From positions 31,763 through 95,762 of the forward strand of contig DATAUC010000062.1 in assembly GCA_036268485.1 (NCBI GenBank): a stretch of DNA of 64,000 bases, given 5' to 3'. Shown in pieces: positions 1 to 19,065 of the stretch (its first letter is position 1; each line of letters starts with the position of its first letter). The translations under genes and the position numbers were made by a program. The notes under the pieces were generated by a model. That model made no database searches. It saw only the letters and a program-made list of their open reading frames with translations, and had not been told where the DNA came from. This DNA is from Acidimicrobiales bacterium. Its GTDB lineage: Bacteria > Actinomycetota > Acidimicrobiia > Acidimicrobiales > RAAP-2.

Positions 1-186
1 GGTCACTTTGAAGCCGTGGCCATGCATCACGCTCAAGAACGAGCCGAGGAAGAAAAGCTCCAGCGGCTTGCGGTTGGATTTCAGGCCGCGAGGATTGCGG
101 CGCATTCCGTCCTCGAGGATGCCCATCATGTTGGATTTGGCCATGATGTGTTGGACCATCTCGACGTCGCTTCGTGGGATGCTCAT
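1..186 (-). CDS. hypothetical protein, N-terminal part only (gene runs off the left edge)
   Basis: My reverse-strand translation from the ATG at 186-184 gives MSIPRSDVEMVQHIMAKSNMMGILEDGMRRNPRGLKSNRKPLELFFLGSFLSVMHGHGFKVT... The start overlaps the TGA of the upstream gene (ATGA at 183-186). It is not in the ORF track because it is open-ended. Confidence 0.4.
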   Translation of the reverse strand, partial: MSIPRSDVEMVQHIMAKSNMMGILEDGMRRNPRGLKSNRKPLELFFLGSFLSVMHGHGFKVT

Positions 187-1172: not shown

Positions 1173-1243
1173 TCGGTTTTCCTTGGTCTGGCCCGCTCTT
1201 CGCCGGCCGCATCGAACCGTGCCGGGGCGGCCGGTCGGCGCAG

Positions 1244-2113
1244 TCACCCCGTTACAGGCCCTCGCTGCAACACAAGCGCCGGCTCAGGGAGCACGCCTTC
1301 AAGATGGCGGGTGGCGGCATCGACCACGGCGTAGCCCAGGCCAAAGGTTCGGATCACCAGCGCGGCAGGTAGGTCGAGCCTCAGGGCAGGGACGGCAAAG
1401 GTGAGCCGAAGGCGCGGCGCCGTGAGGGACTCTCCGTGGGCGGCGAACCCGGCCCGGGCCGCGGTCCAAGCGGCCTTGTCGAGCACGTGGCCGCAGAGGG
1501 AATCCGAAACTGCCGGCCTCTGAGGCAGTCGAGGGCGGGTTGATCCATCGGCCATCATCAGGACGATCTCGCCGTCGATCTTCTCCAAGTGCGCTCCAGC
1601 TGACATCGGCGGGATGACGCCAAAGCTGACGCCGGCCACGATCGCCGCCGCGGCGGGAGTGCCGTCCAACGAGGCCACGGCCGCCCCCACCAGGGCTCGC
1701 TGGTAAGGAAGGCCAGCAGTGGGCTTTCGGCCGGTTCCTTTCAGATGAGCGGGCAGCCCGTTGCGGGCCCGCAGGACGCAGTTGATCCAGCGCAGGTAGT
1801 GATTCTTGGTGCCGTCGTTGGCGGCCCGGTCGATGTTGCGGGACCAGTGGGCCACGTTCTTCTCACAGAGGTGGTCGTCAAGCGTGCCATCGAGGTGTTC
1901 CATGTCCTTGGCGAACAGGCAGGTGGCGAAGAGGATCTTCTGGGCTTCTTTGGCCGTGGCGGGACCTACACCCAGGGTCAGCTCACGTACCCGGGGGAGC
2001 AGGGCTTCATTCTGGTCATTCGTTAGGGCCGAACACCGATACGCCGCCACAAAGGTGTGTACGGCTGGCGGAATGTGAACAACTGGGGGTTGAGGTGGGG
2101 TGTGCATCCCCAC
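1244..2113 (-). CDS. hypothetical protein, paralogue-like of the downstream recombinase-like gene
   Basis: The ORF encodes 289 aa. It shares an RLR-x-T motif (TAPRLRLTFAVPAL) and a LVIRTFGLGYAVVD tail analogous to the neighbouring gene, and is on the same strand. Confidence 0.4.
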   Translation of the reverse strand: MGMHTPPQPPVVHIPPAVHTFVAAYRCSALTNDQNEALLPRVRELTLGVGPATAKEAQKILFATCLFAKDMEHLDGTLDDHLCEKNVAHWSRNIDRAANDGTKNHYLRWINCVLRARNGLPAHLKGTGRKPTAGLPYQRALVGAAVASLDGTPAAAAIVAGVSFGVIPPMSAGAHLEKIDGEIVLMMADGSTRPRLPQRPAVSDSLCGHVLDKAAWTAARAGFAAHGESLTAPRLRLTFAVPALRLDLPAALVIRTFGLGYAVVDAATRHLEGVLPEPALVLQRGPVTG

Positions 2114-2238
2114 ATAGTCCGAAGCAGCCGGTCATGCGCAAATGGGTCCCTCCACGGGGCGGGGCCAACCACCGCGGCGGCCCGATTGTGAGCACCAAGT
2201 GCCACTTCTCACCAGTTCGGAGCGCGGCGGATCCGTAA

Positions 2239-2682
2239 ATGGAGAGGTATTTACTCAAGAACCTTGGGCCAGGCGCCGCCGCGCAGACGGTAGGCAGGGT
2301 CGACGAGATCGCCGACCTTGCAACGAAAGGAGAAGGAATGGCTATCGCGCCAGACCTCATGACGCACCCACGAGACGCAGAAGGTGTGCGCTCTCGCATA
2401 GGGCTCTCTCGGGCCCTGACCAAATTGGGCATGTTGATCCGCCAATACGCCATGGTCATGGGCGCAGAAGATGTCGGCCCAAGAGACGCCCACCGTGCCC
2501 TCAAGGCCGTCTGGAATGCCGCCCTTGAGGCTGAATCGTGGATGGGTCGTCTACCCCGCGAAGGTGATGCAGCAGGCACCGCAGTCCTGGTCCAGGCGGG
2601 CGAACTGGCCATCGAGCTCATGTGGCTCTTGGTCGGCGTGCTCGATGCCGCTGGCGGCCCCGACGGGGCACTGGCCGCCTAA
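2239..2682 (+). CDS. hypothetical protein
   Basis: The ORF encodes 147 aa. An alternative start is the ATG at 2338, preceded by AGGAG at 2328-2332 with 5-nt spacing. The overlapping antisense ORF 2016..2621 is S/R/P-rich and looks non-coding. Confidence 0.45.
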   Translation: MERYLLKNLGPGAAAQTVGRVDEIADLATKGEGMAIAPDLMTHPRDAEGVRSRIGLSRALTKLGMLIRQYAMVMGAEDVGPRDAHRALKAVWNAALEAESWMGRLPREGDAAGTAVLVQAGELAIELMWLLVGVLDAAGGPDGALAA

Positions 2683-2689
2683 CCCCCAC

Positions 2690-2723
2690 CCGATGCGCCA
2701 CCCAGATGAGGGTGGCGCATCGG
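2690..2723. terminator. bidirectional stem-loop between convergent genes
   Basis: A perfect 14-bp inverted repeat, ccgatgcgccaccc (2690-2703) and gggtggcgcatcgg (2710-2723), with a 6-nt loop. It sits between the stop at 2682 (+) and the stop at 2759 (-). Confidence 0.6.
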
Positions 2724-2758
2724 TCGTTGAACGGGTGAGCGCTGCCCGGTGTGAACCT

Positions 2759-4246
2759 CTAGGCAGCTTGGCGACTCAAGTTGCGCAATGCGCCCTGGGC
2801 TTGCTCGAGGCACAGTGTGAGCGTGGCGTGGAGCGATTCGAGTCCGGTCACCACCTTGCTGGCGCCGGTGCGCACGCTCATGGCGGTTTTCATCAGCTCT
2901 TGCATCACCAGGAGGGACCGCTTGGCCTCGGCCAGCTTGGTGTCGACCGCCCCGAGGTCGCCTGTCCGGCCATCGGTCAGCTGGCGCTGGGCCTGGACCG
3001 AGAGGAGTAGGAGGGCGCTTCGGAACAGGGCTGGTTCATCCGAGGCCGGGTCATAGGCCATGACGATCCGATTAGGCGCCAGGACGGCCAGCATCTCACC
3101 ACCAGGCACCAGGTCGCGCCGCGCCACCACGCCCAATGAGGCCTGGGCCTGGCGGTTGCGCTCGGCCTGGTCCAGGTAGTCGGCCCAGTTGCGCGCCCCG
3201 CCGGTGGTGCACTCGATGACCACCCGGGCGCAGCGGTCGCCGGGCTCGGCCAGTGAGACCTCGAAGATCCCGTCACCTTTCTTGGAACCTTTGAGTGCGC
3301 CAACCGAGTTGGCGGTGGCGGTGTAGCTGGCACCCATTCCCGCCGCCACGACCTCGGCCGCGGCGCCGATCGCCGCTTCGAAGGGCAGGCCCTTGCCGGG
3401 GGAGTGGGCCTCGATGACGGCGACCGCCGCGGCCGTCTGGGCCGCCCCGATGGTGGTGCCGACCATCTCTTGAACGCGCTCGAGACGTCCGGCGATCTCG
3501 TTGTGCGAGATGCGCTGCTGCTCGAAGAGGCGGCGCTCGAGGGCCCGAAGCGGGCTGGCCTCATTGGAGACGTCCAACGTCTTGGCGACCTCGCTGAGCG
3601 TCGTGGTCAGGGTGCTCTGCCAAGCCATCTGAGCATCGGCCATGGCTTTGGACACGATGCCCTTGATTGATTCGATGACGGGCGCCCTCTCGCCTCCGAG
3701 CAAGCGCTCGAGCTCGCGTTCGACCGCCTCTACGCCACCCTTGACCGATCGTGCCATCTCGACGCTGACCGTCTTGCTGGCGCTGTCGATGATCTTGCCG
3801 GTCTCTTCAGTGGCTGCTTTCGTTGCGGCGACCGTCAGCTCGACTGTGGCGGACGCGGCACGTTGGGCATCGGTGATCATGGCCTGGCCGGCCGTCTCTG
3901 CCCTCTCAGCCAACTGTGCCACCGTCCCTGAGAGTGCGGTGACGCTGCTCGAATCGGCCGTGGACGCCAGTACCCGGGCCCCGACGGCAACCGCAGTCCT
4001 GACGAAAGGCGCGAGATCCGCGGAGGCAGTGACTTCGGGCCCGGCCAGTTCCCCTCGGCGCCCGCTTGTCCACCGAGAGGCCTCGAGGGCGACCTCTGAG
4101 TCCTCGATGAGCAGTTCCTCGATCCAGAGACCCTTCTCCTCGAGGAGGCGAGCGCCTCTCCGGTGACTGGATCCAGGTTGCGGAGCCGACCTGCGTGGTT
4201 CCCTTGCCTGAGAGCCCATTTCGCTGCCTCGTTCGGCCTGTCCCAT
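2759..4246 (-). CDS. coiled-coil protein with a globular C-terminal domain (hypothetical)
   Basis: This lies in ORF 2759..4498. The plausible starts are ATG 4246 (AGGAGG upstream) or ATG 4219. The long A/E/T/V-rich helical region is followed by KKGDGIFEVSLAEPGDRCARVVIECTTGGARNWADYLDQAERNRQ, which is loosely reminiscent of a restriction-endonuclease-like core. Confidence 0.5.
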   Translation of the reverse strand: MGQAERGSEMGSQAREPRRSAPQPGSSHRRGARLLEEKGLWIEELLIEDSEVALEASRWTSGRRGELAGPEVTASADLAPFVRTAVAVGARVLASTADSSSVTALSGTVAQLAERAETAGQAMITDAQRAASATVELTVAATKAATEETGKIIDSASKTVSVEMARSVKGGVEAVERELERLLGGERAPVIESIKGIVSKAMADAQMAWQSTLTTTLSEVAKTLDVSNEASPLRALERRLFEQQRISHNEIAGRLERVQEMVGTTIGAAQTAAAVAVIEAHSPGKGLPFEAAIGAAAEVVAAGMGASYTATANSVGALKGSKKGDGIFEVSLAEPGDRCARVVIECTTGGARNWADYLDQAERNRQAQASLGVVARRDLVPGGEMLAVLAPNRIVMAYDPASDEPALFRSALLLLSVQAQRQLTDGRTGDLGAVDTKLAEAKRSLLVMQELMKTAMSVRTGASKVVTGLESLHATLTLCLEQAQGALRNLSRQAA

Positions 4247-4448: not shown

Positions 4449-5072
4449 ATGCACATACCAGTTCCACCACCATTGACCAACCCGCTTCTTGGGACCAACC
4501 TGCTGCCTTTTGGCGGCGAGGCCTATCTCGTGCCGCAGTTCCTGACCCCCCATGAGGCCGATCGCACCCTGGGGCAACTGCTCGTCGAGCTGCCATGGGA
4601 GCAGAAGCACGTGAAGCTGTACGGCAAGGTGCACCCGGTGCCTCGTCTTACCGCTTGGAGTGGCGACGTGGCGTACAAATACTCGGGCGTCATTCATGAG
4701 CCCGCACCGTGGTCACCAACGCTCGAAGCCGTCCGAGAGCGCGTGAGCCATGTCGTCCCGCGGCCAAATGGCGTGTTGGGCAATCTCTACCGCGGCGGTG
4801 TGGACACGGTCGGCTATCACGCCGACAACGAGAAGGTGTTCGGCCCGTACCCGATCATCGCGTCGGTCAGCCTCGGGGCGGAACGCCGCTTCACCTTGCA
4901 GCTCAACGACAACCACAGCGACAAGGTTGAGATGGTGCTGCCACACGGCAGCCTCTTGGTCATGGCCGGCGAGACCCAGACGAGGTGGAAGCACACCGTG
5001 CCGCCCGCTCGAAAGTCAGAGGGACACGTTGGTACCCGGGTGAACCTGACATTCCGGAAGCTGGTTGACTGA
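4449..5072 (+). CDS. alkB: AlkB-family Fe(II)/2-oxoglutarate-dependent dioxygenase (nucleic-acid demethylase)
   Basis: Motifs seen: HADNE (HxD), WKHTV (distal His) and RVNLTFR (RxNxTxR). The length is 207 aa. Confidence 0.85.
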   Translation: MHIPVPPPLTNPLLGTNLLPFGGEAYLVPQFLTPHEADRTLGQLLVELPWEQKHVKLYGKVHPVPRLTAWSGDVAYKYSGVIHEPAPWSPTLEAVRERVSHVVPRPNGVLGNLYRGGVDTVGYHADNEKVFGPYPIIASVSLGAERRFTLQLNDNHSDKVEMVLPHGSLLVMAGETQTRWKHTVPPARKSEGHVGTRVNLTFRKLVD

Positions 5073-5098
5073 AGGCGACGGGAGGCAGTGCAGGTGGG

Positions 5099-5791
5099 TT
5101 AGGCGATCATCTCCATCCTCAGACCGCGGCCATCGAGGTCTCCCCCGAGTTGGCGGTGAGTGCGGGTCGCCCAGCGCCGCGCGCTCCAGGCGGCCACGAA
5201 TGCATCGAGCACATCGTCTGGCTGAGTGCCCGGGAACCGCTGGCCGGCGTAATGGTCAACGTCATCGAACACGGTCCGCAGCGCGGCGAGTCGCTCGGCT
5301 CGACCGTTGGGCCTCCTCTTGTGATGGCTCATGGGCCTTCCGACCAAGATGGTGAAGCTCACTTCTGGGTGCACTTCGACGAAGGATTGCTGACGCTCGG
5401 GTGTGAGGAGCTGGTCTACCTCCCTGATCTTGGGGAGGATGGCGAAGGCCTGCTTCGAGATTGCCTTGCCTGAAATCGACCGGGACTTCTCACAGGCCAC
5501 TTCGTAGGATTGGGCGTCGAGCACGCCACGGACGGGTGCTGGGAACACCGAGCTTCTGCGGTCTCCGATCAGCTTTCGAGCTTCGAAGTCACAAGGCCGA
5601 GAATCGGTGGGCGAGAGGCCAATGGGAATGTCGATGGCGGCGGCTGAGAGTCGGCCGGAGTCGAGATCGGCGATCAAGGGCGCCAGGTCCGTGAGTACCG
5701 TCACTTCGGACGTGCCGTTGCCGTCGGCCGGCGTCGTCACCAAAACCCAACCAACACGACACCCGTCGAGACTACCCACCAACTTCGTCAT
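5099..5791 (-). CDS. DUF429 domain protein
   Basis: This lies in ORF 5099..5881, with the start taken at MTKLVGSLDGCRVGWVLV (ATG 5791, AAGGA upstream). It has the typical DUF429 N-terminus (GxDGCxxGW), IDIPIGL, and a C-terminal DDVLDAFVAAWSA motif. It starts 10 nt downstream of the NTase stop. Confidence 0.7.
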   Translation of the reverse strand: MTKLVGSLDGCRVGWVLVTTPADGNGTSEVTVLTDLAPLIADLDSGRLSAAAIDIPIGLSPTDSRPCDFEARKLIGDRRSSVFPAPVRGVLDAQSYEVACEKSRSISGKAISKQAFAILPKIREVDQLLTPERQQSFVEVHPEVSFTILVGRPMSHHKRRPNGRAERLAALRTVFDDVDHYAGQRFPGTQPDDVLDAFVAAWSARRWATRTHRQLGGDLDGRGLRMEMIA

Positions 5792-5801
5792 CAGGAGTCC
5801 T

Positions 5802-6668
5802 TTATCGAGCGGGGAACTGCCCTCCGAAGAGCAGGTTGAGGTAACTAAAGGCTTCGGCGGGCTTGTCGGCCCGGTACGCATCGAGTGCCTTCCGGGCCCT
5901 AGTTGCGGCGGTGTTCACCTTGGACAAAGCATCCTCAGCCTTGGCCGTTGTTGAGCAGGCGTAGAAGCGAGTAGTGACACCCTTGGGATCATTCATTGGA
6001 CCGAGACTGATCTTGGCAAGGTGCTCGAACAAGAAGCAGACGTCACAGACGGGAACAAACGACTTATCTCCAGAGAGGTATTGGGCGGCACGCATTTCGA
6101 GGTAGAAAGACGACATCGGCACGTTGTTGTAGTACTTCCACGCCTTGGCGAGGCGAGCGAGCTTCTTGGCCCCACCGGCGATGGCCGCTTCTTTGTTGAC
6201 GTCGTTGACGTAGGAAAGGTGCTCAAGCGGTGCTGATTCCATCCACTCGACTCCACCTACGCCTGGGATGTCGTACAGGGCAGGATCTTTGTCGTTCTTC
6301 CGGTAGCCCGGGATGACCTCCCAGGTTTCCGCGCCAGCGCTGAATTCCACGACCACCGCCGGTCGGCTGATCCGCACCGTGGTGTGCGGGAAACTCTTCG
6401 AGAGCGCCCCTTTTACGCGATCGAGTGCGGTGCCAGAGGTACCCGGCTTGTCCTTGAGGCTGACCAACAAATCGACGTCGCAATGACCCCGCACACCAGT
6501 GCCATGGCTGAAGGACCCCGCCTCCCTAAAGAGCTGAACGTCCAACGCATTCCGCAACGAAGTCTCGACACTTGATCGGTGAGAGGCCGCTGCGCTTCTC
6601 TGCGTCTCGAGGGGGACGAGTCGCGTGAGAAAGGTGTCGAACCCTTGGGCCACGGTAAGTGCCATCAC
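5802..6668 (-). CDS. SMODS/CD-NTase-like nucleotidyltransferase
   Basis: It carries a pol-beta NTase signature, GSFSHGTGVRGHCDVDLLV (GS...GT...DxD), a later acidic strand TWEVIPGY, and a KLARLAKAWKYYN helix. The start (GTG 6668 or ATG 6665) overlaps the stop of the upstream 2TM gene. Confidence 0.65.
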   Translation of the reverse strand: MMALTVAQGFDTFLTRLVPLETQRSAAASHRSSVETSLRNALDVQLFREAGSFSHGTGVRGHCDVDLLVSLKDKPGTSGTALDRVKGALSKSFPHTTVRISRPAVVVEFSAGAETWEVIPGYRKNDKDPALYDIPGVGGVEWMESAPLEHLSYVNDVNKEAAIAGGAKKLARLAKAWKYYNNVPMSSFYLEMRAAQYLSGDKSFVPVCDVCFLFEHLAKISLGPMNDPKGVTTRFYACSTTAKAEDALSKVNTAATRARKALDAYRADKPAEAFSYLNLLFGGQFPAR

Positions 6669-7051
6669 TGCTCCTTTGGTTCGTCCACTGCGTACGACTG
6701 TCCGCCGCTGTCGATGTTCGCCTGAGCTCGCCTGCGCGACCGTCGATTGGGAGGCTCTGCCGTCTTGTTCTGCTCATCGCGCCGCGAAGTGAGTTCCGCC
6801 AACATCTGGCGGGCATCATCCAGAGGCATGTACGGAAGATCAATCTCGCGTGCTTGGCGGGCCGCGGTCTGTATCTCGAGGTACGCATTGGCAGCGGACG
6901 ATGCCTGGTTCATGTGGTGAGAGGCGTTGATCGTGGTGAGGACAGCTCCGAATCCAGCTGCCGCAATGGCGAGTATGCCGGCGGTGATGCGCCCGGCTGT
7001 AGCTGCCAGCGCCGTGGCGCCGGATGCCGCGGCCAGGAGGCTGGCGGGCAA
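6665..7051 (-). CDS. SLATT-like two-transmembrane-helix protein (putative membrane effector)
   Basis: Two hydrophobic helices, PASLLAAASGATALAA and ITAGILAIAAAGFGAVLTTI, are followed by a charged tail (EPPNRRSRRRAQ). The track start is a TTG. The frame stays open upstream to the stop at 7184-7186 and encodes ...QWRGINLLLG, so the true start is uncertain (a CTG at 7060 is possible). Confidence 0.55.
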   Translation of the reverse strand: MPASLLAAASGATALAATAGRITAGILAIAAAGFGAVLTTINASHHMNQASSAANAYLEIQTAARQAREIDLPYMPLDDARQMLAELTSRRDEQNKTAEPPNRRSRRRAQANIDSGGQSYAVDEPKEQ

Positions 7052-7373
7052 CCCGAGCAGGAGATTGATCCCTCGCCACTGTTTCGTCTGCTCGAACTGT
7101 GCCTGAGAACTGTAGGTGGCGCTTTCCTCTACTCGCTGAAGTCGGCCTCTATGGCCGATCGTCTCTCTGCGTCCTCTGGTCCCTCAGCCATCACAAAGAC
7201 AGGCTAAGGGAGGGTTGTGACAACCCGAGGTGCACTTCACTCTCAAGGTCCGAAAGCTCCTTGTCTTGGATAGCCACTCCATTGTTAAGTCCATTTCTCC
7301 TGGTCAGCTGGCCAAAGCTTAGCTGTGTACGAGGACAGTCTCAAGTTCGGTTAGGGGATGTTGACGAAAAGTA

Positions 7374-7401
7374 TTGACAATCACACGTACACATCTATAC
7401 T
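7374..7401 (+). promoter_or_regulatory. sigma-70-like promoter, probably giving a leaderless transcript of the NYN/RM operon
   Basis: TTGACA (7374-7379), a 16-nt spacer, then TATACT (7396-7401). The ATG of the first gene at 7409 lies 7 nt after the -10 element, and no SD sequence is visible. The local region is AT-rich. Confidence 0.5.
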
Positions 7402-7408
7402 GGTCAAC

Positions 7409-7900
7409 ATGCGATCACACAAGCAGGAGAGCGGGCCCCGGCACTTGGTCCTCATCGACATCGAAAACATGGCCGGGACGCCCAGTCCAACGGCTCTGGA
7501 CGTGGATCAGGTGAAGGCTGCGCTTCGGACGGCCATCCCAGACCTAGAACAGGCACAGTGCGTCGTGGCTTGTAGTCATCGGGCGGCTGCCGTCGTCTCG
7601 TTCGGGTTCCCCGCGGCGCTGCGACGCTGGCGATCTGGGATCGATGGTGCGGACCGGGCCCTTATGGGCGAACTCAGTGACCTCCGCGTGATGAAGCGGT
7701 TCGGCAAAGTGACAATCTGCTCTGGCGACGGGATTTTCACCGAGAGCATTGCTGCAATCGCAGAACTTGGAGTCGAAACAACCGTGGTATCGCTTCAGGG
7801 TCATCTCTCAAAGCGCTTGAAGTGCGCGGCCCGCAGCGTTGTTTTGGTCGCACTCGGCGATACGCCGCCGCCCGTCAGCGCACTCAAGGGGGCCGCATGA
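7409..7900 (+). CDS. NYN/LabA-like (PIN-like) domain protein, putative RNase
   Basis: Motifs seen: LVLIDIENM, DGADRAL, ICSGDGIF, LGVETTVVS and a SKRL...VVLV tail, matching the NYN domain layout. The stop overlaps the next ATG (ATGA at 7897-7900). Confidence 0.65.
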   Translation: MRSHKQESGPRHLVLIDIENMAGTPSPTALDVDQVKAALRTAIPDLEQAQCVVACSHRAAAVVSFGFPAALRRWRSGIDGADRALMGELSDLRVMKRFGKVTICSGDGIFTESIAAIAELGVETTVVSLQGHLSKRLKCAARSVVLVALGDTPPPVSALKGAA

Positions 7901-9411
7901 GCGACAAAGCGAATGTTCAACTGGTTTCAATGGCGGACATCGCCCGCATGGCTGGACAGTCCCGGGCAACTGTGGGGAACTGGAAGGCTCGTGAGGACGA
8001 CTTCCCTGAAGAGCACAGCAGGGGCAAGAGAGGTCCGCTCTACGATCGTGAGCTCATCGCCCGGTGGTTGGCGGCAAAAGGTCGCATCACGGCGACTGCA
8101 CCAATTGGATCTCAGTTGTTCGGGCAAGTCGACGAGGAGTTCGCTCGCGGGTTCGACCCAGACGTCGTCTTGGAACTGTGGTTGGTTGTGTTGGCCTTGC
8201 GTTGCCTACTTCCCGAAGCCTCTTGGTCTCGTATCGCCGGCGCCGAGCCGGCGATGCTTGAAGATCAAGTTCGATCGGCCGCCCATCAATGGCTCGGAGA
8301 TGCAGCCGACCTTTTGCCCCGAGTGGCTCTGCCGGTGGCGGGGCTTGAAGGTGTTGTGAGGGGTGTGTCCGCACTCGATCAGGGCGGAATCTTGGATACC
8401 GCGGATTTTGTACTCGACAGACTGCTCCAGGGACATGGCCACATGGGGCACGGAAAGTTCTCCACCCCAAGGAGCCTTCGCTCTCTGATGACGGAACTTT
8501 GTGGCCCTGGTGCGTCATTCTACGACCCGGCAGCCGGGGCTGGCCGGTTACTGATCGAAGTGGCTGAGGCGAGCAATACTTTTCTGCCCCCAGCTCTTTT
8601 CGGTCAGGAGCCGAACGTCCACATCAGGAGCATTTGCGAGTTGAACCTGAAGATTCATGGACTTGAAGCGACGATCAAGTTGGACAACGTCCTGTTTTAT
8701 GACCTCTTCCCGGATGCCCAGTTCGACCGAGTCGTATGCGATCCACCATGGGGTCAACGGCTTCCCGAGACCAGCGCACTTGTCGACGATCCACGCTGGA
8801 TCTGGGGTGAGCCCACGGGCGATGCAAGCACGGCGTGGATTCAGCACTGCCTGTACCACTTAGGGCCGGAAGGTAAGGCTGTCATTGCCCTGCCGCCGAA
8901 GATTCTCTTTGAGAAGGGTCGGACGGCCCGAACGCTCCAAGGCATCATCAAGGCGGGACTTCTCGAGGCCGTGGTCAGCCTTCCACCCGGATTACTCCCA
9001 GGCGCCTCTATCGGGTGCGCTGTGCTGGTGTTCGCGAAGGGCCGGCCCACGGTGGACGGGAAGCCATCTCCTGCGTTGATGATCAACATCGACGATGCCC
9101 AGTTGGAGGGAGTCGGTAGGGAGAGGTCGCTCGCGCCCGGCCTTATCGCCTCGATCGGTGAAATTTATCGTAACTGGACTTCCGGCACGTCTCCCAACTC
9201 AGAGATTGCTTCGACAGCCCAGTACGATGATCTTGCTGAGAATGCCTTTGACCTGAGTCCTCGACGCTACGTGGTGCCAAGCACCGTCCTTGTTGACACG
9301 ACGGCGCTCCTTCACCAGCAACAGGAACTGATCCGGCGACTCGGCGACTCGCTGGACACATGCAAGAAGACTGATGCCCAACTGATCCGCCTGTTGCAGG
9401 AGCAGTCGTGA
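7897..9411 (+). CDS. N6-adenine DNA methyltransferase (HsdM-like, gamma class) with an N-terminal excisionase/MerR-type HTH
   Basis: The N-terminus VSMADIARMAGQSRATVGNWKAREDDFP looks like an HTH. Motif I is FYDPAAGAGRLL and motif IV is VCDPPWGQ. The likely start is MSDKANV at 7897. Confidence 0.8.
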   Translation: MSDKANVQLVSMADIARMAGQSRATVGNWKAREDDFPEEHSRGKRGPLYDRELIARWLAAKGRITATAPIGSQLFGQVDEEFARGFDPDVVLELWLVVLALRCLLPEASWSRIAGAEPAMLEDQVRSAAHQWLGDAADLLPRVALPVAGLEGVVRGVSALDQGGILDTADFVLDRLLQGHGHMGHGKFSTPRSLRSLMTELCGPGASFYDPAAGAGRLLIEVAEASNTFLPPALFGQEPNVHIRSICELNLKIHGLEATIKLDNVLFYDLFPDAQFDRVVCDPPWGQRLPETSALVDDPRWIWGEPTGDASTAWIQHCLYHLGPEGKAVIALPPKILFEKGRTARTLQGIIKAGLLEAVVSLPPGLLPGASIGCAVLVFAKGRPTVDGKPSPALMINIDDAQLEGVGRERSLAPGLIASIGEIYRNWTSGTSPNSEIASTAQYDDLAENAFDLSPRRYVVPSTVLVDTTALLHQQQELIRRLGDSLDTCKKTDAQLIRLLQEQS

Positions 9412-10109
9412 TGTCGGCCTCGCAGAAGAAGCTCGGAGCCATCGAAGGCGTGGAACTAGTGCGAGGCATGCCTACTACCCGCACAGCGAAGACTGGAGAC
9501 GTTCCCGTCCTCTCGGTCGCGGCCCTGCGCAACGGAGATGCTCCAAGGAGGTTTGTGGGGCGCGCTGAGATGATTACGGTGGGCGCGGCACTGGTCAATG
9601 ACGTGCTGCTCGCCGTAGAAGGTGGAACGGTTGGCGAGTGCTTCGTTGTTCACGAAGATCTCGCCGAGTTCGTTCCTTCACAGCAGGCGGCCACTCTTCG
9701 AGTGCTGTCAACTGAGGAAGTCGAGCCATGGTACCTAGGCGCCTGGCTGAGCTCCGCAGAGGGTCAACAAAGACTTGGTGTGATCGCGCGAGGATCAACC
9801 ATCCAGCGCATCGCATTTGGTGATCTCGAAGGCCTCGATGTCCGCATACCGCAGCTCACCGAGCAGCGACGCATAGGCGGACGATACCGGGCATTTAACG
9901 AATCGATACGGGCGCATCGAGCTGTTGCAGCTGAGTTGGAAGAACTGCAGAGGGTCGAGTTCGCACTGGCATTCTCCGGTGAAGAGATGCAGCAGGAAAG
10001 TGGACCAACGCTGAATCAAGCGGCGCTTAGGCGATTGAAGGCAAGAGCCACTTCGTTCTCTGATGAAAGACTTCCTGATGGGCCACCCAAAGAAGAGGGG
10101 AAACGATGA
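9408..10109 (+). CDS. half-size type I specificity subunit (single target recognition domain)
   Basis: At 233 aa it has one TRD plus the conserved helix region (STIQRIAFGDLEGLDVRIPQLTEQRRIG...ELEELQR). There are 4-nt overlaps at both ends. Confidence 0.7.
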   Translation: MMSASQKKLGAIEGVELVRGMPTTRTAKTGDVPVLSVAALRNGDAPRRFVGRAEMITVGAALVNDVLLAVEGGTVGECFVVHEDLAEFVPSQQAATLRVLSTEEVEPWYLGAWLSSAEGQQRLGVIARGSTIQRIAFGDLEGLDVRIPQLTEQRRIGGRYRAFNESIRAHRAVAAELEELQRVEFALAFSGEEMQQESGPTLNQAALRRLKARATSFSDERLPDGPPKEEGKR

Positions 10110-12052
10110 ATAGCCATTCCGAGAAGGTCGCCTTTATATGGTCGGTCAAAGAAGTCCTCCGAGACCACTACAAGAGGCACCAGTACGGGGAAGTGATCTT
10201 GCCCTTCTGCGTCCTGCGGCGACTCGACTGCGTGCTTGAACCCACCAAGGAGGATGTACTGGTGAAGGCCTCAAGTATCTCAGGAGAACTCGACTCTCAT
10301 GCCGATCTGCTGGCTCATACTGCCAAGCAGCCCTTCTACAACACCTCGAAGTTCAGTTTCGCCAACTTGTTGGGCGACCAGCACAACATCACGGCAAACG
10401 TGCACGACTTCATCAACGGTTTCTCGCCTAACACACGCGACGCTCTGGAGAAATTCGGTCTACCTCGCCACGTCGACAAGATGGGCGAGGCTGGGATCCT
10501 CTACATGGTGGTCCAGCGCTTTGCTGCCATCGACCTGCACCCCGAGGTCGTCTCCAACCTCGACATGGGCTACATCTACGAGGATCTTGTTCGAGTCACA
10601 GCCGATCTCTCCAATGAGGAGGCAGGGGAGCACTTCACACCCCGAGAGGTCATTCAACTGATGGTGAACATCTTGTTCTCCGACGAGGACAAGCTGCTAA
10701 CCCAGGGCAAGATCGCTACCGTCTACGACCCCGCCTGCGGGACCGGGGGCATGCTGTCGGTGGCCGAAGAGCACCTGCGAGAAATCAATCCGTCGGCCAA
10801 GCTCCACCTATTCGGACAGGAGATCCAGCCTGAGTCCTACGCCGTGTGTCGTTCCGACATGCTGCTCAAGGGACAGGACGCGTCCCGCATTGAGTTCGGT
10901 GATTCATTCACCCAGGACGAATTCGCCGGCGAGCGGTTTGACTACATGTTGGCCAACCCGCCGTTCGGCAAGGACTGGAAGACTATCGAAAAGGACCTCA
11001 AGCGCGAGCATTCGCAGCTCGGTATGTCAGGACGCTTCGGCGCAGGTCTGCCGTCCACCTCGGATGGCCAGATCCTCTTTCTTCAGCAGATGATTTCGAA
11101 GATGCGACCTATCGAGGACGGGGGCAGTCGCATCGGGGTCGTCTTCAACGGCTCGCCACTATTCTCCGGCGACGCCGGCTCCGGCATGAGCGAGATTCGA
11201 CGCTGGATCATCGAGAACGACATGCTCGAGGCGATCATTGGTTTGCCCGATCAGCTCTTCTACAACACCGGCATCTACAGCTACGTCTGGGTGGTTACCA
11301 ACCGCAAGCGTCCGGAGCGTCGAGGCCACGTGCAGTTGATCGACGCCCGCGAACTCTGCGCCAAAATGCGCAAGAGCCTAGGCAACAAGCGCAACGAGCT
11401 TCTGCCAGCGCATATCACTGAGATCGTAAGGCTGTACGAGGGCTGCATCGATGGCGAGAGTTCAAGGGTGCTGCCCAATGAAGCCTTCGGCTACCGCAAG
11501 GTGGTCGTGGAACGCCCGCTCCGTGTTCGCTACGACGTCTCCGAGGCGACTGTTGCCGCGGTCGCTGAGTTAAAGCCGGTCCAGGCACTCGATGAATCAG
11601 AGGCAGTCACGTTGGCAGACGGCCTGCAGTCCCTCGCTGGCAACTCTTACGCAACATTGAGTGAGTTGGAGCTGGCTCTGAAGCCGCTGTTTGCCAAACT
11701 GGCCAAGGCGTCGGCTCCACTTCGAAAGGCTGTCCTGTCTGAGTGCATGACACGAGATCCGGAGGCGGATCCACTACTGACGGTGAAGGGCGCGTTCGTG
11801 CCCGATCCGGACCTACGGGATGCCGAGAGTGTGCCACTAGGGGAGGACGTCAGCGAGTTCATTGCCCGTGAAGTGACGCCCTTTGCTCCGGACGCTTGGG
11901 TGGATGAGAGCAAGACCAAGCTCGGGTACGAGTTCCCTTTCACCCGACATTTCTATGCGTACGTGCCGCCTCGACCACTAGACGAAATCGATGCGGACAT
12001 CAAAGCAAGTCAGCAAAGGATCTTACGGTTGCTCGCCGAGGTGGCTGAGTGA
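10106..12052 (+). CDS. hsdM: type I restriction-modification methyltransferase subunit M
   Basis: It has an HsdM N-terminal region. Motif I is VYDPACGTGGMLS and motif IV is NPPFGKDWK. The length is 648 aa. Confidence 0.9.
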   Translation: MNSHSEKVAFIWSVKEVLRDHYKRHQYGEVILPFCVLRRLDCVLEPTKEDVLVKASSISGELDSHADLLAHTAKQPFYNTSKFSFANLLGDQHNITANVHDFINGFSPNTRDALEKFGLPRHVDKMGEAGILYMVVQRFAAIDLHPEVVSNLDMGYIYEDLVRVTADLSNEEAGEHFTPREVIQLMVNILFSDEDKLLTQGKIATVYDPACGTGGMLSVAEEHLREINPSAKLHLFGQEIQPESYAVCRSDMLLKGQDASRIEFGDSFTQDEFAGERFDYMLANPPFGKDWKTIEKDLKREHSQLGMSGRFGAGLPSTSDGQILFLQQMISKMRPIEDGGSRIGVVFNGSPLFSGDAGSGMSEIRRWIIENDMLEAIIGLPDQLFYNTGIYSYVWVVTNRKRPERRGHVQLIDARELCAKMRKSLGNKRNELLPAHITEIVRLYEGCIDGESSRVLPNEAFGYRKVVVERPLRVRYDVSEATVAAVAELKPVQALDESEAVTLADGLQSLAGNSYATLSELELALKPLFAKLAKASAPLRKAVLSECMTRDPEADPLLTVKGAFVPDPDLRDAESVPLGEDVSEFIAREVTPFAPDAWVDESKTKLGYEFPFTRHFYAYVPPRPLDEIDADIKASQQRILRLLAEVAE

Positions 12053-13323
12053 ATACCTCGGGCTTGGCGCATCAAGCTGCACCGGCGCAAGCGGCAATGC
12101 TGAGCATCCCAAGAGGATGGCGGACCTATCGACTCAAGCACGTTGCGAAGCTGAATCGCGAGGTGTTGCCGGAGATGACTGATCCAGACAGCACCTTTCG
12201 CTACATCGACATTGGGTCAGTCGACAGCTTGGGACGGATCTCGGATGTCGAAGAACTGACCTTCGGGGAGGCACCAAGCCGAGCTCGACGAGTTGTTCAT
12301 CGAGGAGATCTCATCGTGTCCACCGTCCGCACCTACCTCCGAGCCATTGCACAACTAGAGGACTTGGATGGTGCAGTAGTCGCCTCGACGGGATTTGCCA
12401 CGGTGACGGCTGGAGCTCTTGTAGAACAGCGGTTCCTCTATTGGTGGTTGCGGAGTACGCCATTCGTCGAAGAGGTCGTTGCCCGCTCAACGGGGGTCAG
12501 CTACCCCGCCGTCAACGCGTCCGACATTGGCGACATCGTCGTGCCCGTTCCTCCAATGGATGAGCAACGTCGGATCTCCAAGTACCTGGATTCAGCCACT
12601 GCGCGAATCGATGAACTTCTGGCGGAGCAGGACCAACAGATAGTTCTGCTTGAAGAGAGGTTGCTCGCAGAACGTCGAGCTCTACTTCTGGGTCCCGAGG
12701 GTTTGGGGTTCCCGGGGTGGGACTATGGACGACTCAAGCGGTTCATCTCGATTGCTCGGGGTCGATTCACTCATCGTCCTCGAAATGACCCTGCCCTATA
12801 TGACGGACCGTATCCATTCATACAGACGGGAGACATCGTTTCAGCTGTGAATGGAGAGATCATCACTTGGTCGCAGTCGCTCAATGAAATCGGCCTTGCT
12901 GCCAGTCGTTTAGCTAAGAAGGGCACCTTGGTAATGGCCATCGCCGCGAACATCGGAGACATCGCACGGCTGGGCTTTGATGCTTGCTTTCCCGACAGCA
13001 TCGTTGCGCTATCGGGCTCCGCTGCCGTGACGGACGACTACGTCCTTCAGCTCGTCCGTGCGATCCGCACCGAACTTATCGGAGGTGCCACCTTGAACAC
13101 TCAATTGAACACCAATGTCGATCGGATCGGGGACATCCAAGTTCCCATTCCTCCCATCTTGGAGCAGAAACGCTTGGTCGAGGTGCTAGATCAATCTGCG
13201 CGAGACGTACAGGAACTCAAACTCGAGAACAACCAGCAGAACTCACTTCTGCGCGAGCACCGACAGGCTCTCATCACCGCAGGTGTCACTGGTGGCCTTG
13301 AGGCGTTACGGGAGGTGGCGTGA
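12049..13323 (+). CDS. hsdS: type I restriction-modification specificity subunit S (two TRDs)
   Basis: At 424 aa it has two TRD-plus-conserved-helix units (PPMDEQRRISKYLD... and PPILEQKRLVEVLD...). Confidence 0.85.
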   Translation: MNTSGLAHQAAPAQAAMLSIPRGWRTYRLKHVAKLNREVLPEMTDPDSTFRYIDIGSVDSLGRISDVEELTFGEAPSRARRVVHRGDLIVSTVRTYLRAIAQLEDLDGAVVASTGFATVTAGALVEQRFLYWWLRSTPFVEEVVARSTGVSYPAVNASDIGDIVVPVPPMDEQRRISKYLDSATARIDELLAEQDQQIVLLEERLLAERRALLLGPEGLGFPGWDYGRLKRFISIARGRFTHRPRNDPALYDGPYPFIQTGDIVSAVNGEIITWSQSLNEIGLAASRLAKKGTLVMAIAANIGDIARLGFDACFPDSIVALSGSAAVTDDYVLQLVRAIRTELIGGATLNTQLNTNVDRIGDIQVPIPPILEQKRLVEVLDQSARDVQELKLENNQQNSLLREHRQALITAGVTGGLEALREVA

Positions 13324-16300
13324 TGCCATCGCATGTGACGGAGCACCAGTTCGAGTCAGACATCGTCGAATCGCTCACAACGAGCGGTGGGTACTCGTTG
13401 GGCGCGGACTCCCACTTCGACAAGAAGTCTGGTGTGGATACAGCTGAACTCTTCGCATTCCTCGGAAACACCCAGGGTGAGAAGTGGAACTCATTCGTCG
13501 ACACCCGCTACGGCGGAGACGCTGGCAAGGCGCAGGAGAAGTTCTTGTCCCGTCTTGTCGCTGAGCTCGACCAGCACGGGACAATCGACGTTTTGCGAAC
13601 CGGCATCAAGGACCAGGGCGTGAACTTCGCCTTGGTGTACTTCAAGCCAGCATCGGGCATGAACGCGACGCTCGCCGAACTCTACGCGAAGAACCGACTT
13701 ACCGTCACCCGGCAACTCCATTACTCCCTGGCCAATGCCAATTCGCTCGATCTCGCCCTGTTCGTGAACGGGATACCAGTCGCGACTGCGGAGCTGAAGA
13801 GCACATTCAACGGGCAGACCGTGGACCATGCCATCGAGCAGTACGAGAGCGATCGCGACCCTAAGGAGTTGCTTCTTGGCCGGCGCGCGCTCGTCCATTT
13901 CGCCGTCGATCCCCACCTCGCCTACATGACGACGAAGCTGGCATACAAGGCAACGGAATTCCTACCCTTCAACCTCGGTAGCAACCCCGGCCAGATGTCC
14001 TGTGGCGAGGGCAACCCACCCAATCCCAAGGGGTATTCCACGTCCTACCTATGGGAGCGGGTCTGGTCCTACGATGCCTGGCTCGACATCTTGGGACGCT
14101 TCGTCGAGTCCTTTCAGGACGGCAAGGGCAAGCCCCGCCGGGTGGTCTTCCCGCGGTTCCACCAGTGGGACGCCGTCACCAAGCTGGCTGCGGATGCGCT
14201 GGCCAATGGCCCTGGGAACTCCTACTTGATCCAACATTCTGCGGGGTCGGGCAAGTCCAACTCCATCGGATGGTTGGCACACCGGCTCTCACTGCTCCAC
14301 GACTCGGCTGACCACAAGGTGTTCAACAAGGTGATCGTCGTCACCGATCGCCGGGTCCTCGACGAGCAGCTCCGGGCCACGGTGAGGCAGTTCGAGGACG
14401 TGAAGGGCACGATGGTTTCGGTGGAGGGCAAGAGCGGCTCGAAGTCGTCCGAGTTAGCCGATGCCCTCACCGGCATGGCCCAGATCATCACAGTGACACT
14501 CGAAACATTTCCCTATGTGATCACCAAGATCGCGGAGGCCGAGCTCGCCAAGTTCACCTATGCGGTCATCGTGGACGAGGCGCACTCGTCGCAGACCGGG
14601 GATGCGGCGAACGCGCTGAAGCAGGCCCTCGGCGCCGGCGGCGGAGGCGGATCAGAGGGTGAGGGCGAAGGCGAAGGGGAGATGGACGCTGAGGCGGCGC
14701 TCGCGGCCATTGTGGCCGCACGCGGACGCCAGCCGAACCTGAGCTTCTTCGCCTTTACCGCAACGCCCAAGGCTCGCACGGTCGAGCTCTTTGGAGTCCC
14801 CAACGCGGAGGGCATCAAGATCCCCTTCCACCTCTACACGATGCGTCAAGCCATCGAAGAGAAGTTCATCCGCGACGTCCTGGAGAACTACGCCACCTAC
14901 GACACCTACTTCAAGCTTGCCGCAACCTCAGAGCAAGCGGCCCATGAGGAGGTGGACGTCCGCAAGGCCGCTTCGGCCATCCGGCGCTATGTGGCGAGGA
15001 ACCCCGCGCTCATCAAGCAAAAGGCGGCGATCATCGTCGAACACTTTCGCGAGCACACGGCGAAGGAGATCGGCGGGCGAGCCAAGGCCATGGTGGTCAC
15101 CGACTCGCGTCCCGCCGCGGTCAAGTACAAAGCGGCCATTGACGCTCACATTGCTGAAAACCACATCACAGATGTGAAGGCGTTAGTGGCGTTCTCGGGC
15201 ACGGTCAACGACGATGTTATGGGAGAAGTCACCGAGAGCTCGCTCAACGGTTTCGCCGAATCACAGACGGCGGCCCGCTTCAAGGGTACGGATCCTTTCA
15301 AGCCGGGGGACTACCAGATCCTCATCGTGGCCGAGAAATTCCAGACGGGCTTCGACGAGCCGTACCTGCACACCATGTTCGTCGACAAGCCGCTGAAGGG
15401 TCTCAACGCGGTACAGACTCTGTCGCGCCTCAACCGCATCGCACCGGGGAAGACCTCTACATTCGTGCTCGATTTTCGCAATAAAGCCGAAGACATCCAG
15501 TCGGCGTTCCAGCGCTACTACGAGGCCGTCATCGCGGAGTCCACTAACCCGAACGTCCTCTACGACCTCCAGGGTCGCATGATGGGTGTTGGCATTCTCG
15601 ACGTGGCCGAGATCAATGCTGCGAGCGACGCCTTCTTTGGCATCGACCCATCGAAGCGGAGCTTGAAAGCCCTCTACGCAAATGTCGACCCGGCCGTGGA
15701 CCGCTTCAAGGACCTCGATGACGATGACCAGGCGGAGTTTCGGGACGCTTCTGACCGATTCATCCGGGCTTACTCGTTCCTGTCGCAGGTCATGCCGTGG
15801 ACCGACCCCGAGCTCGAGCGGCTCTATGTCTACGCCAAGGCCCTCGCCGCATGCCTGCCGGCGCAATTGTCCGGAGGGCTGGACCTCGGTACTGACGTGG
15901 TTCTGACACACCTCCGGTTGGTCGATCGGGGCGCCGAGGAGGTCGACCTTCAGCCGGGCGAGGTCAGTCCGGAGAAGCCGTTCCCTGGCGAGGGCCACGC
16001 GGGCGGTCCCGGCGATCCCCTCCTCGACAACCTGAGCACAGTCATCGAGCAGATCAACGAGATCTTCGGTGCCGACCTCGACGAGCGGGACCGCCTTGAG
16101 GTCGAGAAGATCAAGATGACTCTCCTAGACCGTCAGGATCTCAAGACCTATGCGACGGCCAACAGCGAGGAGAACTACGCCCTCGAGTTCGGCCCTGTAT
16201 TCAGGGGTGCGGTCCTGGACCAAGAGGAGCACAACCGGCGCCTCTACGAGCTGCTGCAATCCAAGCCCGATTTGGCAGCCATGGTCGAGAAGCAGCTGAT

Positions 16301-16352
16301 GCGCGAGACCTACAACCAGCTACGGGCGGATCCGCCGGCCAATACGCCATGA
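13320..16352 (+). CDS. hsdR: type I restriction endonuclease subunit R
   Basis: SF2 helicase motifs are present: HSAGSGKSNS (I), VDEAHSSQTG (II, DEAH), FTATPK (III) and QTLSRLNR (VI). The length is 1010 aa. Confidence 0.9.
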   Translation: MMPSHVTEHQFESDIVESLTTSGGYSLGADSHFDKKSGVDTAELFAFLGNTQGEKWNSFVDTRYGGDAGKAQEKFLSRLVAELDQHGTIDVLRTGIKDQGVNFALVYFKPASGMNATLAELYAKNRLTVTRQLHYSLANANSLDLALFVNGIPVATAELKSTFNGQTVDHAIEQYESDRDPKELLLGRRALVHFAVDPHLAYMTTKLAYKATEFLPFNLGSNPGQMSCGEGNPPNPKGYSTSYLWERVWSYDAWLDILGRFVESFQDGKGKPRRVVFPRFHQWDAVTKLAADALANGPGNSYLIQHSAGSGKSNSIGWLAHRLSLLHDSADHKVFNKVIVVTDRRVLDEQLRATVRQFEDVKGTMVSVEGKSGSKSSELADALTGMAQIITVTLETFPYVITKIAEAELAKFTYAVIVDEAHSSQTGDAANALKQALGAGGGGGSEGEGEGEGEMDAEAALAAIVAARGRQPNLSFFAFTATPKARTVELFGVPNAEGIKIPFHLYTMRQAIEEKFIRDVLENYATYDTYFKLAATSEQAAHEEVDVRKAASAIRRYVARNPALIKQKAAIIVEHFREHTAKEIGGRAKAMVVTDSRPAAVKYKAAIDAHIAENHITDVKALVAFSGTVNDDVMGEVTESSLNGFAESQTAARFKGTDPFKPGDYQILIVAEKFQTGFDEPYLHTMFVDKPLKGLNAVQTLSRLNRIAPGKTSTFVLDFRNKAEDIQSAFQRYYEAVIAESTNPNVLYDLQGRMMGVGILDVAEINAASDAFFGIDPSKRSLKALYANVDPAVDRFKDLDDDDQAEFRDASDRFIRAYSFLSQVMPWTDPELERLYVYAKALAACLPAQLSGGLDLGTDVVLTHLRLVDRGAEEVDLQPGEVSPEKPFPGEGHAGGPGDPLLDNLSTVIEQINEIFGADLDERDRLEVEKIKMTLLDRQDLKTYATANSEENYALEFGPVFRGAVLDQEEHNRRLYELLQSKPDLAAMVEKQLMRETYNQLRADPPANTP

Positions 16353-17983: not shown

Positions 17984-18089
17984 TCACAATCCCTGGGGTG
18001 ACGGGCGAGAAACTTCCTCGCTCGCCACCTCCAACAAGGGGCTCGCTTTTTTACACAGTTTCGGGTGTTTTTTTACGAACACCCCCTCT

Positions 18090-18434
18090 TGGAGGTGGCG
18101 GGGTTCGAACCCGCGTCCTTCAGAGCTTCAATAGGCCTTCTCCGAGCGCAGCCAGCAAAAGATTGTCGGGGGCGGCATCACTGCTGGCGGTTGAGCCGCC
18201 CCGTATTCAACTGAATGTCCCTAGTGGTTAGTTGACGTCACTGCTAGGTAAGCCCTACTGAATGGCGCCCACGTTCCGATCCATAGGGCTGAGACCGGGT
18301 GAACGTCGCTACTTAAGCAGCGAGTGCGAGCTGAGGCTCGGCATTTATTTTTGGTTCCGGCTCTTTAACGTGGTTCCGGAGACCACGGCTCGCTTCTCCT
18401 ATATCAACGACCGAAGTCGAATCCAATCACCCCC
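18090..18434 (-). ncRNA. ssrA: tmRNA (transfer-messenger RNA)
   Basis: The reverse strand begins GGGGGTGATTGGATTCGAC and ends GGACGCGGGTTCGAACCCCGCCACCTCCA. The acceptor stem has a G3:U70 pair. An internal tag ORF GCC GAG CCT CAG CTC GCA CTC GCT GCT TAA (18342-18313) gives AEPQLALAA. It lies directly downstream of smpB. Confidence 0.9.
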
Positions 18435-19041: not shown

Positions 19042-19065
19042 AGGGGTCGAGGGTACCCTGACACC

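Follow-up and report, generated by a model that had tools for sequence, protein, structure and literature searches.

The 64,000-nt stretch of Acidimicrobiales DNA analysed here (the window) very probably carries, on its minus strand, a two-gene type I CBASS belonging to a family widespread in Actinomycetota, with a frameshifted effector gene and, behind it, a DUF429 gene that is a chance neighbour and not a component of the system. Most likely, this copy of the CBASS is inactive or crippled. Three tightly packed ORFs make up the locus (6665-7051, 5802-6668 and 5099-5791 or 5099-5881), and the near absence of spacing on which the original prediction of a three-gene operon drew is borne out by their coordinates and junctions. 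At the first junction, the TGA of the 2TM effector gene (6667-6665) overlaps both possible starts of the nucleotidyltransferase gene, an ATG at 6665-6663 and a GTG at 6668-6666, as had been described. At the second, the nucleotidyltransferase TAA (5804-5802) is separated by the expected 10 nt (AGGACTCCTG) from the DUF429 ATG at 5791, and an AAGGA spans the stop codon ahead of this ATG. Scans of positions 4900-7500 for promoters, terminators and repeats returned nothing above chance.

The middle gene (5802..6665, minus strand) is intact; its product has 287 aa if translation starts at the ATG (6665) and 288 aa if it starts at the GTG (6668). Its earlier assignment as an SMODS/CD-NTase enzyme is upheld by a match to the PADLOC Cyclase model PDLC00776 (E=7.6e-111, model positions 1-286 of 287) and by a match to Pfam SMODS (53.4 bits, cutoff 26.5, E=4.7e-14), which is the sole significant Pfam match, and a profile search of the PDB retrieved CD-NTases exclusively (6p82, 6p8u, 6p8j, 6p80 and 9sa4). 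All 25 of the PADLOC matches listed, the best 25 of 29, are to CBASS cyclase models. Both sequence motifs that had been pointed out, GSFSHGTGVRGHCDVDLLV and TWEVIPG, are seen in the translation. The cyclase contains a GS...DVD motif whose residues G51, S52, D64 and D66 are invariant in alignment A2 and aligned with the DID of 6p82, and it keeps all 68 invariant columns of that alignment. The correspondence with 6p82, 6p8u, 6p8j and 6p80 runs from end to end (profile positions 2-287, chain residues 3-300; E=1.1e-14) and brings the G-S and D-x-D motifs into register, but the similarity is distant. These four clade C/D structures are presumably those of P. aeruginosa CdnD and E. coli MS115-1 CdnC. 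The CdnD and CdnC enzymes belong to type III CBASS, which has HORMA/TRIP13 regulators and a NucC effector, whereas none of these type III genes is present at this locus.

The gene upstream of the cyclase (main body 6665..7183, minus strand; 172 open codons and a TGA stop) had been described as encoding a SLATT-like 2TM protein, and the family searches agree. Its longest canonical ORF matches the PADLOC Effector 2TM model PDLC00710 (E=3.3e-51), over model positions 48-174 of 176 only, and the frame read from 7135 matches the NCBIfam model SLATT_4 (NF033632) over positions 5-153 of 154 with 91.2 bits (cutoff 55). When the reading frame is restored, the protein comprises 175 aa, compared with 174-180 aa in typical homologues. 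The membrane segments anticipated for this protein are apparent in the restored sequence as two hydrophobic stretches at about residues 43-65 and 69-91, with Kyte-Doolittle values in 19-residue windows of 1.3-1.9 over residues 41-66 and 58-92. In the AF2 model (pLDDT 67), the protein is a hairpin made up of helices only, with a short loop between helices 2-44 and 50-102.

Two shortfalls in these searches could be cited in favour of a different reading, in which the nucleotidyltransferase is of the MNT/KNTase/AbiEii or antibiotic type and the small gene encodes a generic membrane protein: the NCBIfam CBASS cyclase models, CBASS_cyclase_b and one other, score 86 and 47 bits, both below the equivalog cutoff of 200, and the Pfam SLATT models, including SLATT_fungal (17-19 bits, cutoff 26.5), are sub-threshold for the small protein. 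Such nucleotidyltransferase families had been named beforehand as the matches that would count against a CBASS, yet the best matches in PADLOC, Pfam and the PDB are all to CD-NTase/SMODS proteins, and SLATT_4 exceeds its cutoff. This alternative is effectively refuted.

The two genes have the arrangement expected of a minimal type I CBASS, as the pairing of SMODS with SLATT had suggested, with PADLOC models matched for both the cyclase and the 2TM effector. The effector gene lies directly adjacent to the cyclase gene, its stop overlapping the cyclase start, and neither Cap2/Cap3, HORMA/TRIP13 nor QueC/TGT/OGG is encoded among the neighbours (DUF429, AlkB-like, NYN and type I RM). In a survey of about 90 loci containing relatives of the cyclase (38-79% identity), among them the loci with the nearest known relatives of the cyclase and of the 2TM gene, a homologous 2TM gene resides directly upstream of the cyclase, abutting or overlapping it, in about 45 of the 80 genome loci. 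The same arrangement occurs in L001, L004, L005, L006 and L171-L176, among which L172-L176 hold the closest 2TM relatives; in L003, an S_4TM gene is found upstream of the cyclase instead. The conserved unit is thus a 2TM gene followed by a cyclase gene, with overlapping stop and start, and the family is already modelled in PADLOC.

Pairs of SLATT and CD-NTase genes have been described as type I CBASS, lactococcal plasmids being one example (PMC11381338). The locus in the window is like other SLATT/2TM systems of this type in gene content and order, with the effector first and its stop overlapping the cyclase start, as well as in its PADLOC and SLATT_4 matches and its location in a defence island. 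It differs in that the effector is frameshifted and in that DUF429 abuts the 3′ end, an arrangement present in no other member examined. The two-gene logic of a CD-NTase and a membrane effector is also shared with type I CBASS containing Cap14 (a Saf-2TM plus SAVED chloride channel), which establishes nucleotide-gated channels as one form that CBASS transmembrane effectors can take (PMC10402079), but the effector here is about 175 aa, has no SAVED domain and is a member of another family (SLATT_4).

The original prediction, which had the small gene reaching 7186, missed a frameshift in this effector gene; positions 7186-7184 form an in-frame TGA, and the main frame contains no ATG, GTG or TTG from 7183 down to a TTG at 7051. 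The N-terminus, MAEGPEDAERRSAIEADFSE, is encoded in a different frame (7129..7191, minus strand), beginning with an ATG at 7191 and closed after 20 codons by a premature TAG at 7131-7129, and it aligns with the N-termini of intact homologues, such as MATDSPEDAERRQAIERELMRLEESA in P0243. This configuration implies a 1-nt deletion at about 7133-7135, after codon 20. Because codons 1-20 lie in the other frame and no canonical start precedes 7051, a full-length effector cannot be started canonically. The 128-aa ORF opened by the TTG at 7051 (6665-7051), the longest to have a canonical start, is devoid of the invariant N-terminal helix, and the intact effector ORF required of a functional type I CBASS is absent. 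Barring a sequencing error at the deletion, the CBASS copy is thus probably disabled. Programmed -1 frameshifting of the SLATT gene was rejected, as the overlap of the two frames (7183-7129) lacks a slippery heptamer. Translation of the SLATT frame from a non-canonical codon (ATC at 7159, CTG near 7060) is an unsupported possibility.

An assembly or sequencing artefact, behind which the type I CBASS would be intact and active and DUF429 still a bystander, is an unlikely explanation that nevertheless carries some weight. Of the 55 columns in which 24 homologues are invariant, all are retained by the SLATT frame once the single indel is set aside, and the frame shares 86% identity with its closest intact homologue, so the frameshift may be very recent or a sequencing error, and the restored length of 175 aa is typical of the family. 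Against this explanation, the deletion-bearing sequence is the same in a second, separately made assembly (L008; JGI versus Logan), although the two possibly derive from the same reads and their agreement argues against an assembler artefact only. In addition, there is no homopolymer at the deletion site (CAGCGAG). Four other family members (L014, L016, L054 and L172) likewise have a split 2TM or cyclase gene, so that decay of this toxic system appears to be recurrent, which fits the cost of abortive-infection toxins.

Downstream of the cyclase, the third gene (5099..5791, minus strand) encodes a 230-aa protein with a strong match to Pfam DUF429 (PF04250; E=4.3e-50, 170.8 bits, cutoff 23). This is the only Pfam domain in the protein (residues 9-210), and no recognisable nucleotide-sensor domain such as SAVED is found there. 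The RNase H-like fold suggested earlier is consistent with the AF2 model (pLDDT 95.7), for which a Foldseek search of the PDB places RuvC first (4ep4; E=4e-3, TM 0.41/0.53), followed by Ydc2 and YqgF, so that a RuvC/RNase H-like nuclease is predicted. The acidic residues D9, D54, E139, D193 and D196, which are invariant among relatives, are kept in the window protein. A sequence search of the PDB with the DUF429 profile gave no match, and PADLOC gave no significant one (best E=0.035). The lack of an assigned function for DUF429, as stated earlier, holds only in part: the DUF429 domain of M. smegmatis MSMEG_5849 has been reported to have RNase HII activity (PMC4429107). By its Pfam and structural matches, the window protein belongs to the DUF429/PF04250 family, which falls in clade D (RuvC-like) of the RNase H-like superfamily and includes the MSMEG_5849 domain. 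It is single-domain with conserved acidic residues, and has no RelA/SpoT or Nudix fusion. Its relatives are stand-alone genes in a conserved chromosomal context, the gene being described as unlikely to be mobile (PMC3985635), whereas the window copy is positioned in an island directly behind a CBASS cyclase.

The proposal that DUF429 is a third CBASS component is contradicted by gene neighbourhoods from both directions. DUF429 is absent within 5 kb on either side of the cyclase in all 80 genome loci, and likewise near the cyclase relatives in L001, L003-L006, the P0015 contig and L171-L176. Conversely, among 82 loci with DUF429 relatives (80 metagenome loci plus L009 and L010; 40-72% identity), neither a cyclase nor a 2TM gene is found at any of the 80 metagenome loci or in L009 or L010, by a search whose cyclase HMM is centred on this clade, so that very distant CD-NTases near DUF429 genes may escape detection. 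The pairing therefore occurs in 0 of about 90 cyclase loci and 0 of 82 DUF429 loci, and there is no conserved co-occurrence of DUF429 with SMODS/SLATT pairs. The original prediction had called for such a survey and had itself stated that non-conserved adjacency would mark DUF429 as a chance neighbour. No DUF429 relatives were found in viral contigs.

On large Acidimicrobiales contigs, the closest DUF429 relatives (L009, 69% identity; L010, 66%) occupy a conserved metabolic context, in which the gene is monocistronic and flanked by an Oxidored_FMN gene and an adh_short gene, the two contigs being syntenic with each other. Their DUF429 proteins are 65% identical, so that neither is nearer to the other than to the window copy. 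The window copy resides outside this Oxidored_FMN/adh_short context. A tblastn search with the AlkB-like, NYN and three other flank proteins gave no matches in L009-L170, and thus no flank synteny with the DUF429 loci. Clustering of the ORFs beside DUF429 recovered only a downstream adh_short gene (13 loci) and an upstream gene of thiolase/acyl-CoA type, against a background of high-GC shadow ORFs.

The surroundings of the locus are those of a lower-GC island, as had been noted, with GC of 0.59-0.63 at the locus compared with 0.66 over the whole window and 0.67-0.70 beyond 20 kb; the GC3 of "core" ORFs is unreliable, because shadow frames may account for several of the listed long ORFs. Type I RM genes adjoin the locus on the plus strand, where a divergent NYN-domain gene (E=4.8e-6) precedes Pfam-assigned HsdM, HsdS, HsdM, HsdS and HsdR (together 7358..16352). 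On the other side, an AlkB-like 2OG-Fe(II) oxygenase gene (4449..5072, plus strand; Pfam 2OG-FeII_Oxy_2, E=3.3e-34) is convergent with DUF429. A tmRNA gene (18089..18434, minus strand; ARAGORN, and Rfam RF00023 at 138 bits) and smpB (18517-19314; SmpB Pfam E=1.3e-56) likely mark the edge of the island. An att-type repeat of the tmRNA 3′ end was sought in the window and in L007, and none was found.

With 10 nt of spacing and a ribosome-binding site, DUF429 is almost certainly co-transcribed with the cyclase here, probably by read-through from the CBASS promoter, because there is no room for a terminator after the cyclase. This arrangement, the position inside a defence island and a seemingly competent catalyst (acidic residues conserved, RuvC-like model of high confidence) might be taken to mean that DUF429 was co-opted, in this lineage alone, as a functional third component, which could act as a second nuclease effector replacing the broken SLATT protein, as a signal-degrading enzyme or as a nucleic-acid sensor. 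We regard such recruitment as very improbable, given the failure of the pairing to recur in either survey, the lack of a significant PADLOC match or a recognisable sensor domain, and a sequence with no peculiarity relative to its stand-alone orthologues. A more elaborate version holds that the SLATT protein was lost by frameshift and the intact cyclase then coupled to the DUF429 nuclease in a one-off, newly evolving architecture; the chance of this is very slight, but if true, it would bring an RNase H-fold effector or signal-processing enzyme into CBASS. A local functional link between DUF429 and the cyclase may lie beyond the reach of comparative data alone.

The preferred reading, a two-gene CBASS with an unrelated neighbour, can be cast as a mechanism by analogy with the families concerned. 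Translational coupling would join production of the SLATT-type 2TM effector to that of the CD-NTase cyclase. Upon phage infection, the cyclase would make a cyclic oligonucleotide, the helical, cytoplasmic portion of the SLATT protein would sense this signal, and the SLATT protein would then compromise the membrane and abort the infection. DUF429, for its part, would be a stand-alone RuvC/RNase H-like nuclease gene of the kind normally seen in the Acidimicrobiales lineage. A rearrangement of the island or an insertion probably brought it to within 10 nt of the cyclase, and it may be either a resident gene or cargo of the island.

The locus thus adds one more, probably decayed, SLATT-type type I CBASS to a group already captured by defence-finder profiles, and DUF429 is removed as a candidate CBASS accessory. 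It also illustrates that, within defence islands, close packing by itself says little about whether genes are functionally linked. Effectors of the SLATT_4 family, common in Actinomycetota and without a significant Pfam SLATT match, are a reasonable target for mechanistic work.

Three minus-strand ORFs occupy 5099-7191, packed as the original prediction described: the ORF map and sequence contain the overlap junction and the 10-nt gap, the quoted motifs recur in the translated ORFs, and the observation is largely correct. The cyclase ORF (5802-6665/6668) runs from an ATG at 6665-6663 to a TAA at 5804-5802, and its start codon overlaps by one base the TGA (6667-6665) that ends the small upstream ORF. 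The DUF429 gene begins with an ATG at 5791, ten nucleotides past the cyclase stop (spacer AGGACTCCTG, with AAGGA across the stop). The window is contained in a 100-kb JGI metagenome contig assigned to an Acidimicrobiales MAG. In the JGI annotation, the cyclase (window 5802-6668; 9325-9990 on the source contig, L007) is a 221-aa protein (P0004) with an internal start and no Pfam hit recorded, and this short call thus conceals the CBASS; the Logan call reaches the full length of 287 aa and includes SMODS.

The cyclase matches Pfam SMODS above the gathering score (E=4.7e-14) and the PADLOC CBASS Cyclase model PDLC00776 over positions 1-286 of 287 (E=7.6e-111); among the PADLOC matches listed (25 of 29), all are CBASS cyclase models. 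A profile of 24 homologues retrieved only CD-NTases from the PDB (6p82, 6p8u, 6p8j, 9sa4, 6p80, 7x4a), with the DVD of the window's cyclase aligned to DID, and the NCBIfam equivalogs CBASS_cyclase_a and _b match beneath their strict cutoffs. The predicted SMODS/CD-NTase assignment is thereby borne out, and the PADLOC, SMODS and PDB matches rule out an MNT/KNTase-type enzyme.

The small protein is SLATT-like, as proposed, scoring 91 bits against NCBIfam SLATT_4 (cutoff 55) and E=3.3e-51 against the PADLOC CBASS "Effector 2TM" model PDLC00710, with only sub-threshold hits to Pfam SLATT models; together with the cyclase match, this upholds the CBASS call. Hydropathy gives two adjacent hydrophobic segments, in agreement with the two helices predicted, and the AF2 model, of modest confidence (pLDDT 67), has two cytoplasmic helices after a long helical hairpin.

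The original prediction missed a frameshift in this effector gene. The PADLOC 2TM alignment begins only at model position 48. Traced upstream, the frame stays open as far as 7183, up to a TGA at 7186-7184, and the TTG at 7051 is its first ATG, GTG or TTG codon. Intact 2TM homologues are 174-180 aa long, and in ~40 of the 44 extracted from related loci a start codon precedes HMM positions 3-16. Their N-terminal pattern, ...PEDAERRQAIE.EL.RLEESA.YS..., is matched across two frames, the first part by MAEGPEDAERRSAIEADFSE, read from an ATG at 7191 and followed by a stop, and the second by RVEESATYSSQAQFEQTKQWR... in the main frame (6665-7183); therefore, one base is missing at ~7133-7135, and the ancestral reading would have been ...ADF-S/R-R-VEES.... 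Translation from the TTG at 7051 would give 128 aa and leave out the segment bearing the invariant S, Q, Q, F, E, K, W, R and N. The deletion is either recent or, less likely, an error, since indel aside the frame keeps every invariant residue. The sequence is the same in the JGI assembly and an independent Logan assembly (L008, possibly from the same reads), its context is not homopolymeric, and no slippery site for programmed frameshifting was seen at the lesion. The 2TM or cyclase gene is also split into two ORFs at four other loci (L014 4472-4982, L016 4725-5861, L054 4965-5869 and L172 1885-2707), which suggests either recurrent decay of a toxic system or assembly errors.

The tight packing had suggested that DUF429 is an unexplained third CBASS component, or a chance neighbour if its adjacency proved unconserved. 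In gene tables for six loci of cyclase homologues (67-79% identity), the upstream gene encodes a 2TM or 4TM protein, and DUF429 is absent downstream. A wider survey, in which each GTDB species was represented by one genome, added 80 loci with cyclase identities of 38-69%, among them loci from Actinomycetota, Patescibacteria, Chloroflexota and Poribacteria; all their six-frame ORFs were searched with our own HMMs for the cyclase, 2TM protein and DUF429. A homologous 2TM gene lies directly upstream of the cyclase in ~45 of these, a conserved two-gene unit, and DUF429 occurs within 5 kb on either side in none. Nor does it occur at the loci of the nearest 2TM relatives (L172-L176; 87% and 83% identity) or at L171, the one locus from a viral contig. 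Conversely, neither a cyclase nor a 2TM gene is present at any of 80 metagenome loci with DUF429 relatives of 40-72% identity. On large contigs, the nearest of these relatives (P0124, 69%; P0126, 66%) are monocistronic, with their own upstream intergenic regions of ~85-120 nt, and lie syntenically between Oxidored_FMN and adh_short genes; they share 65% identity, so the window's DUF429 does not stand out within that lineage. No DUF429 relatives were found in viral contigs, and the protein has no significant PADLOC match. These results agree with a published comment that DUF429 keeps its gene context among related taxa and is unlikely to be a mobile gene (PMC3985635). By the criterion set in the original prediction, DUF429 is a chance neighbour, and the claim of an unexplained third component lacks support. 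The Lentzea californiensis homologue of the cyclase (67% identity; L003 2997-3896) is paired with S_4TM (SMODS-associating 4TM) rather than SLATT, so effectors have been swapped within the clade. At twelve related loci (L034, L038, L039, L042, L043, L045, L053, L056, L072, L079, L084, L085), two divergent CD-NTase paralogues stand in tandem in place of SLATT, the second ~1-2 kb upstream of the matched cyclase.

The DUF429 protein matches Pfam PF04250 (E=4.3e-50) and retains conserved acidic residues. Its confident AF2 model (pLDDT 95.7) best matches RuvC, Ydc2 and YqgF in the PDB, with weak E-values (4e-3 and upward), in agreement with placement in RuvC-like clade D of the RNase H-like superfamily (PMC3985635). 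The description of DUF429 as having no assigned function is slightly out of date: in M. smegmatis, the DUF429 domain of MSMEG_5849 has been credited with RNase HII activity (PMC4429107; see also PMC3153485). The window's gene is probably transcribed by read-through, its product probably acting independently as a predicted nucleic-acid nuclease. Two matches of 72% identity (L134 5001-5327, L135 1699-2025) span residues 122-230 only and may be truncated or frameshifted.

The predicted lower-GC island beside restriction-modification genes is evident in the GC profile (~0.59-0.64 over 1 to ~18 kb, vs 0.67-0.70 beyond) and the HsdM/HsdS/HsdR neighbours. The same stretch contains an NYN gene, two HsdM/HsdS pairs, one HsdR, several genes without a family match and, just beyond the window, an Mrr-like (Mrr_cat) nuclease (L007 19476-20306). 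At the edge of the stretch lie a minus-strand tmRNA gene (18089-18434; tag peptide AEPQLALAA) and smpB (18517-19314, minus strand). A tmRNA gene is a classic island integration site, and the arrangement points to a genomic island associated with tmRNA; a search of the window and L007 for an att repeat found none, and other DUF429 genes have none of the window's flanking genes nearby. The type I restriction-modification layout (7358-16352, plus strand) is unusual: the NYN gene overlaps the first HsdM, after which come HsdS, the other HsdM/HsdS pair and the single HsdR, whose stop is overlapped by 4 nt by a 520-aa gene (16349-17911) lacking any Pfam match. Four further genes without Pfam matches (373, 289, 354 and 619 aa), between an AlkB-like gene and Mrr_cat (window 183-3880, minus strand; L007 15606-17465), may be island or mobile-element genes.

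From what is known of CBASS, infection would activate the cyclase to make a cyclic oligonucleotide, which the cytoplasmic helices of the SLATT protein would sense; the 2TM hairpin might then oligomerise and breach or depolarise the membrane, much as Cap14 works as a nucleotide-gated channel (PMC10402079), with abortive infection as the outcome. In the window's copy, a full-length effector is probably not produced, and therefore the system is likely inert. The locus is a new, probably decayed member of a known CBASS type.
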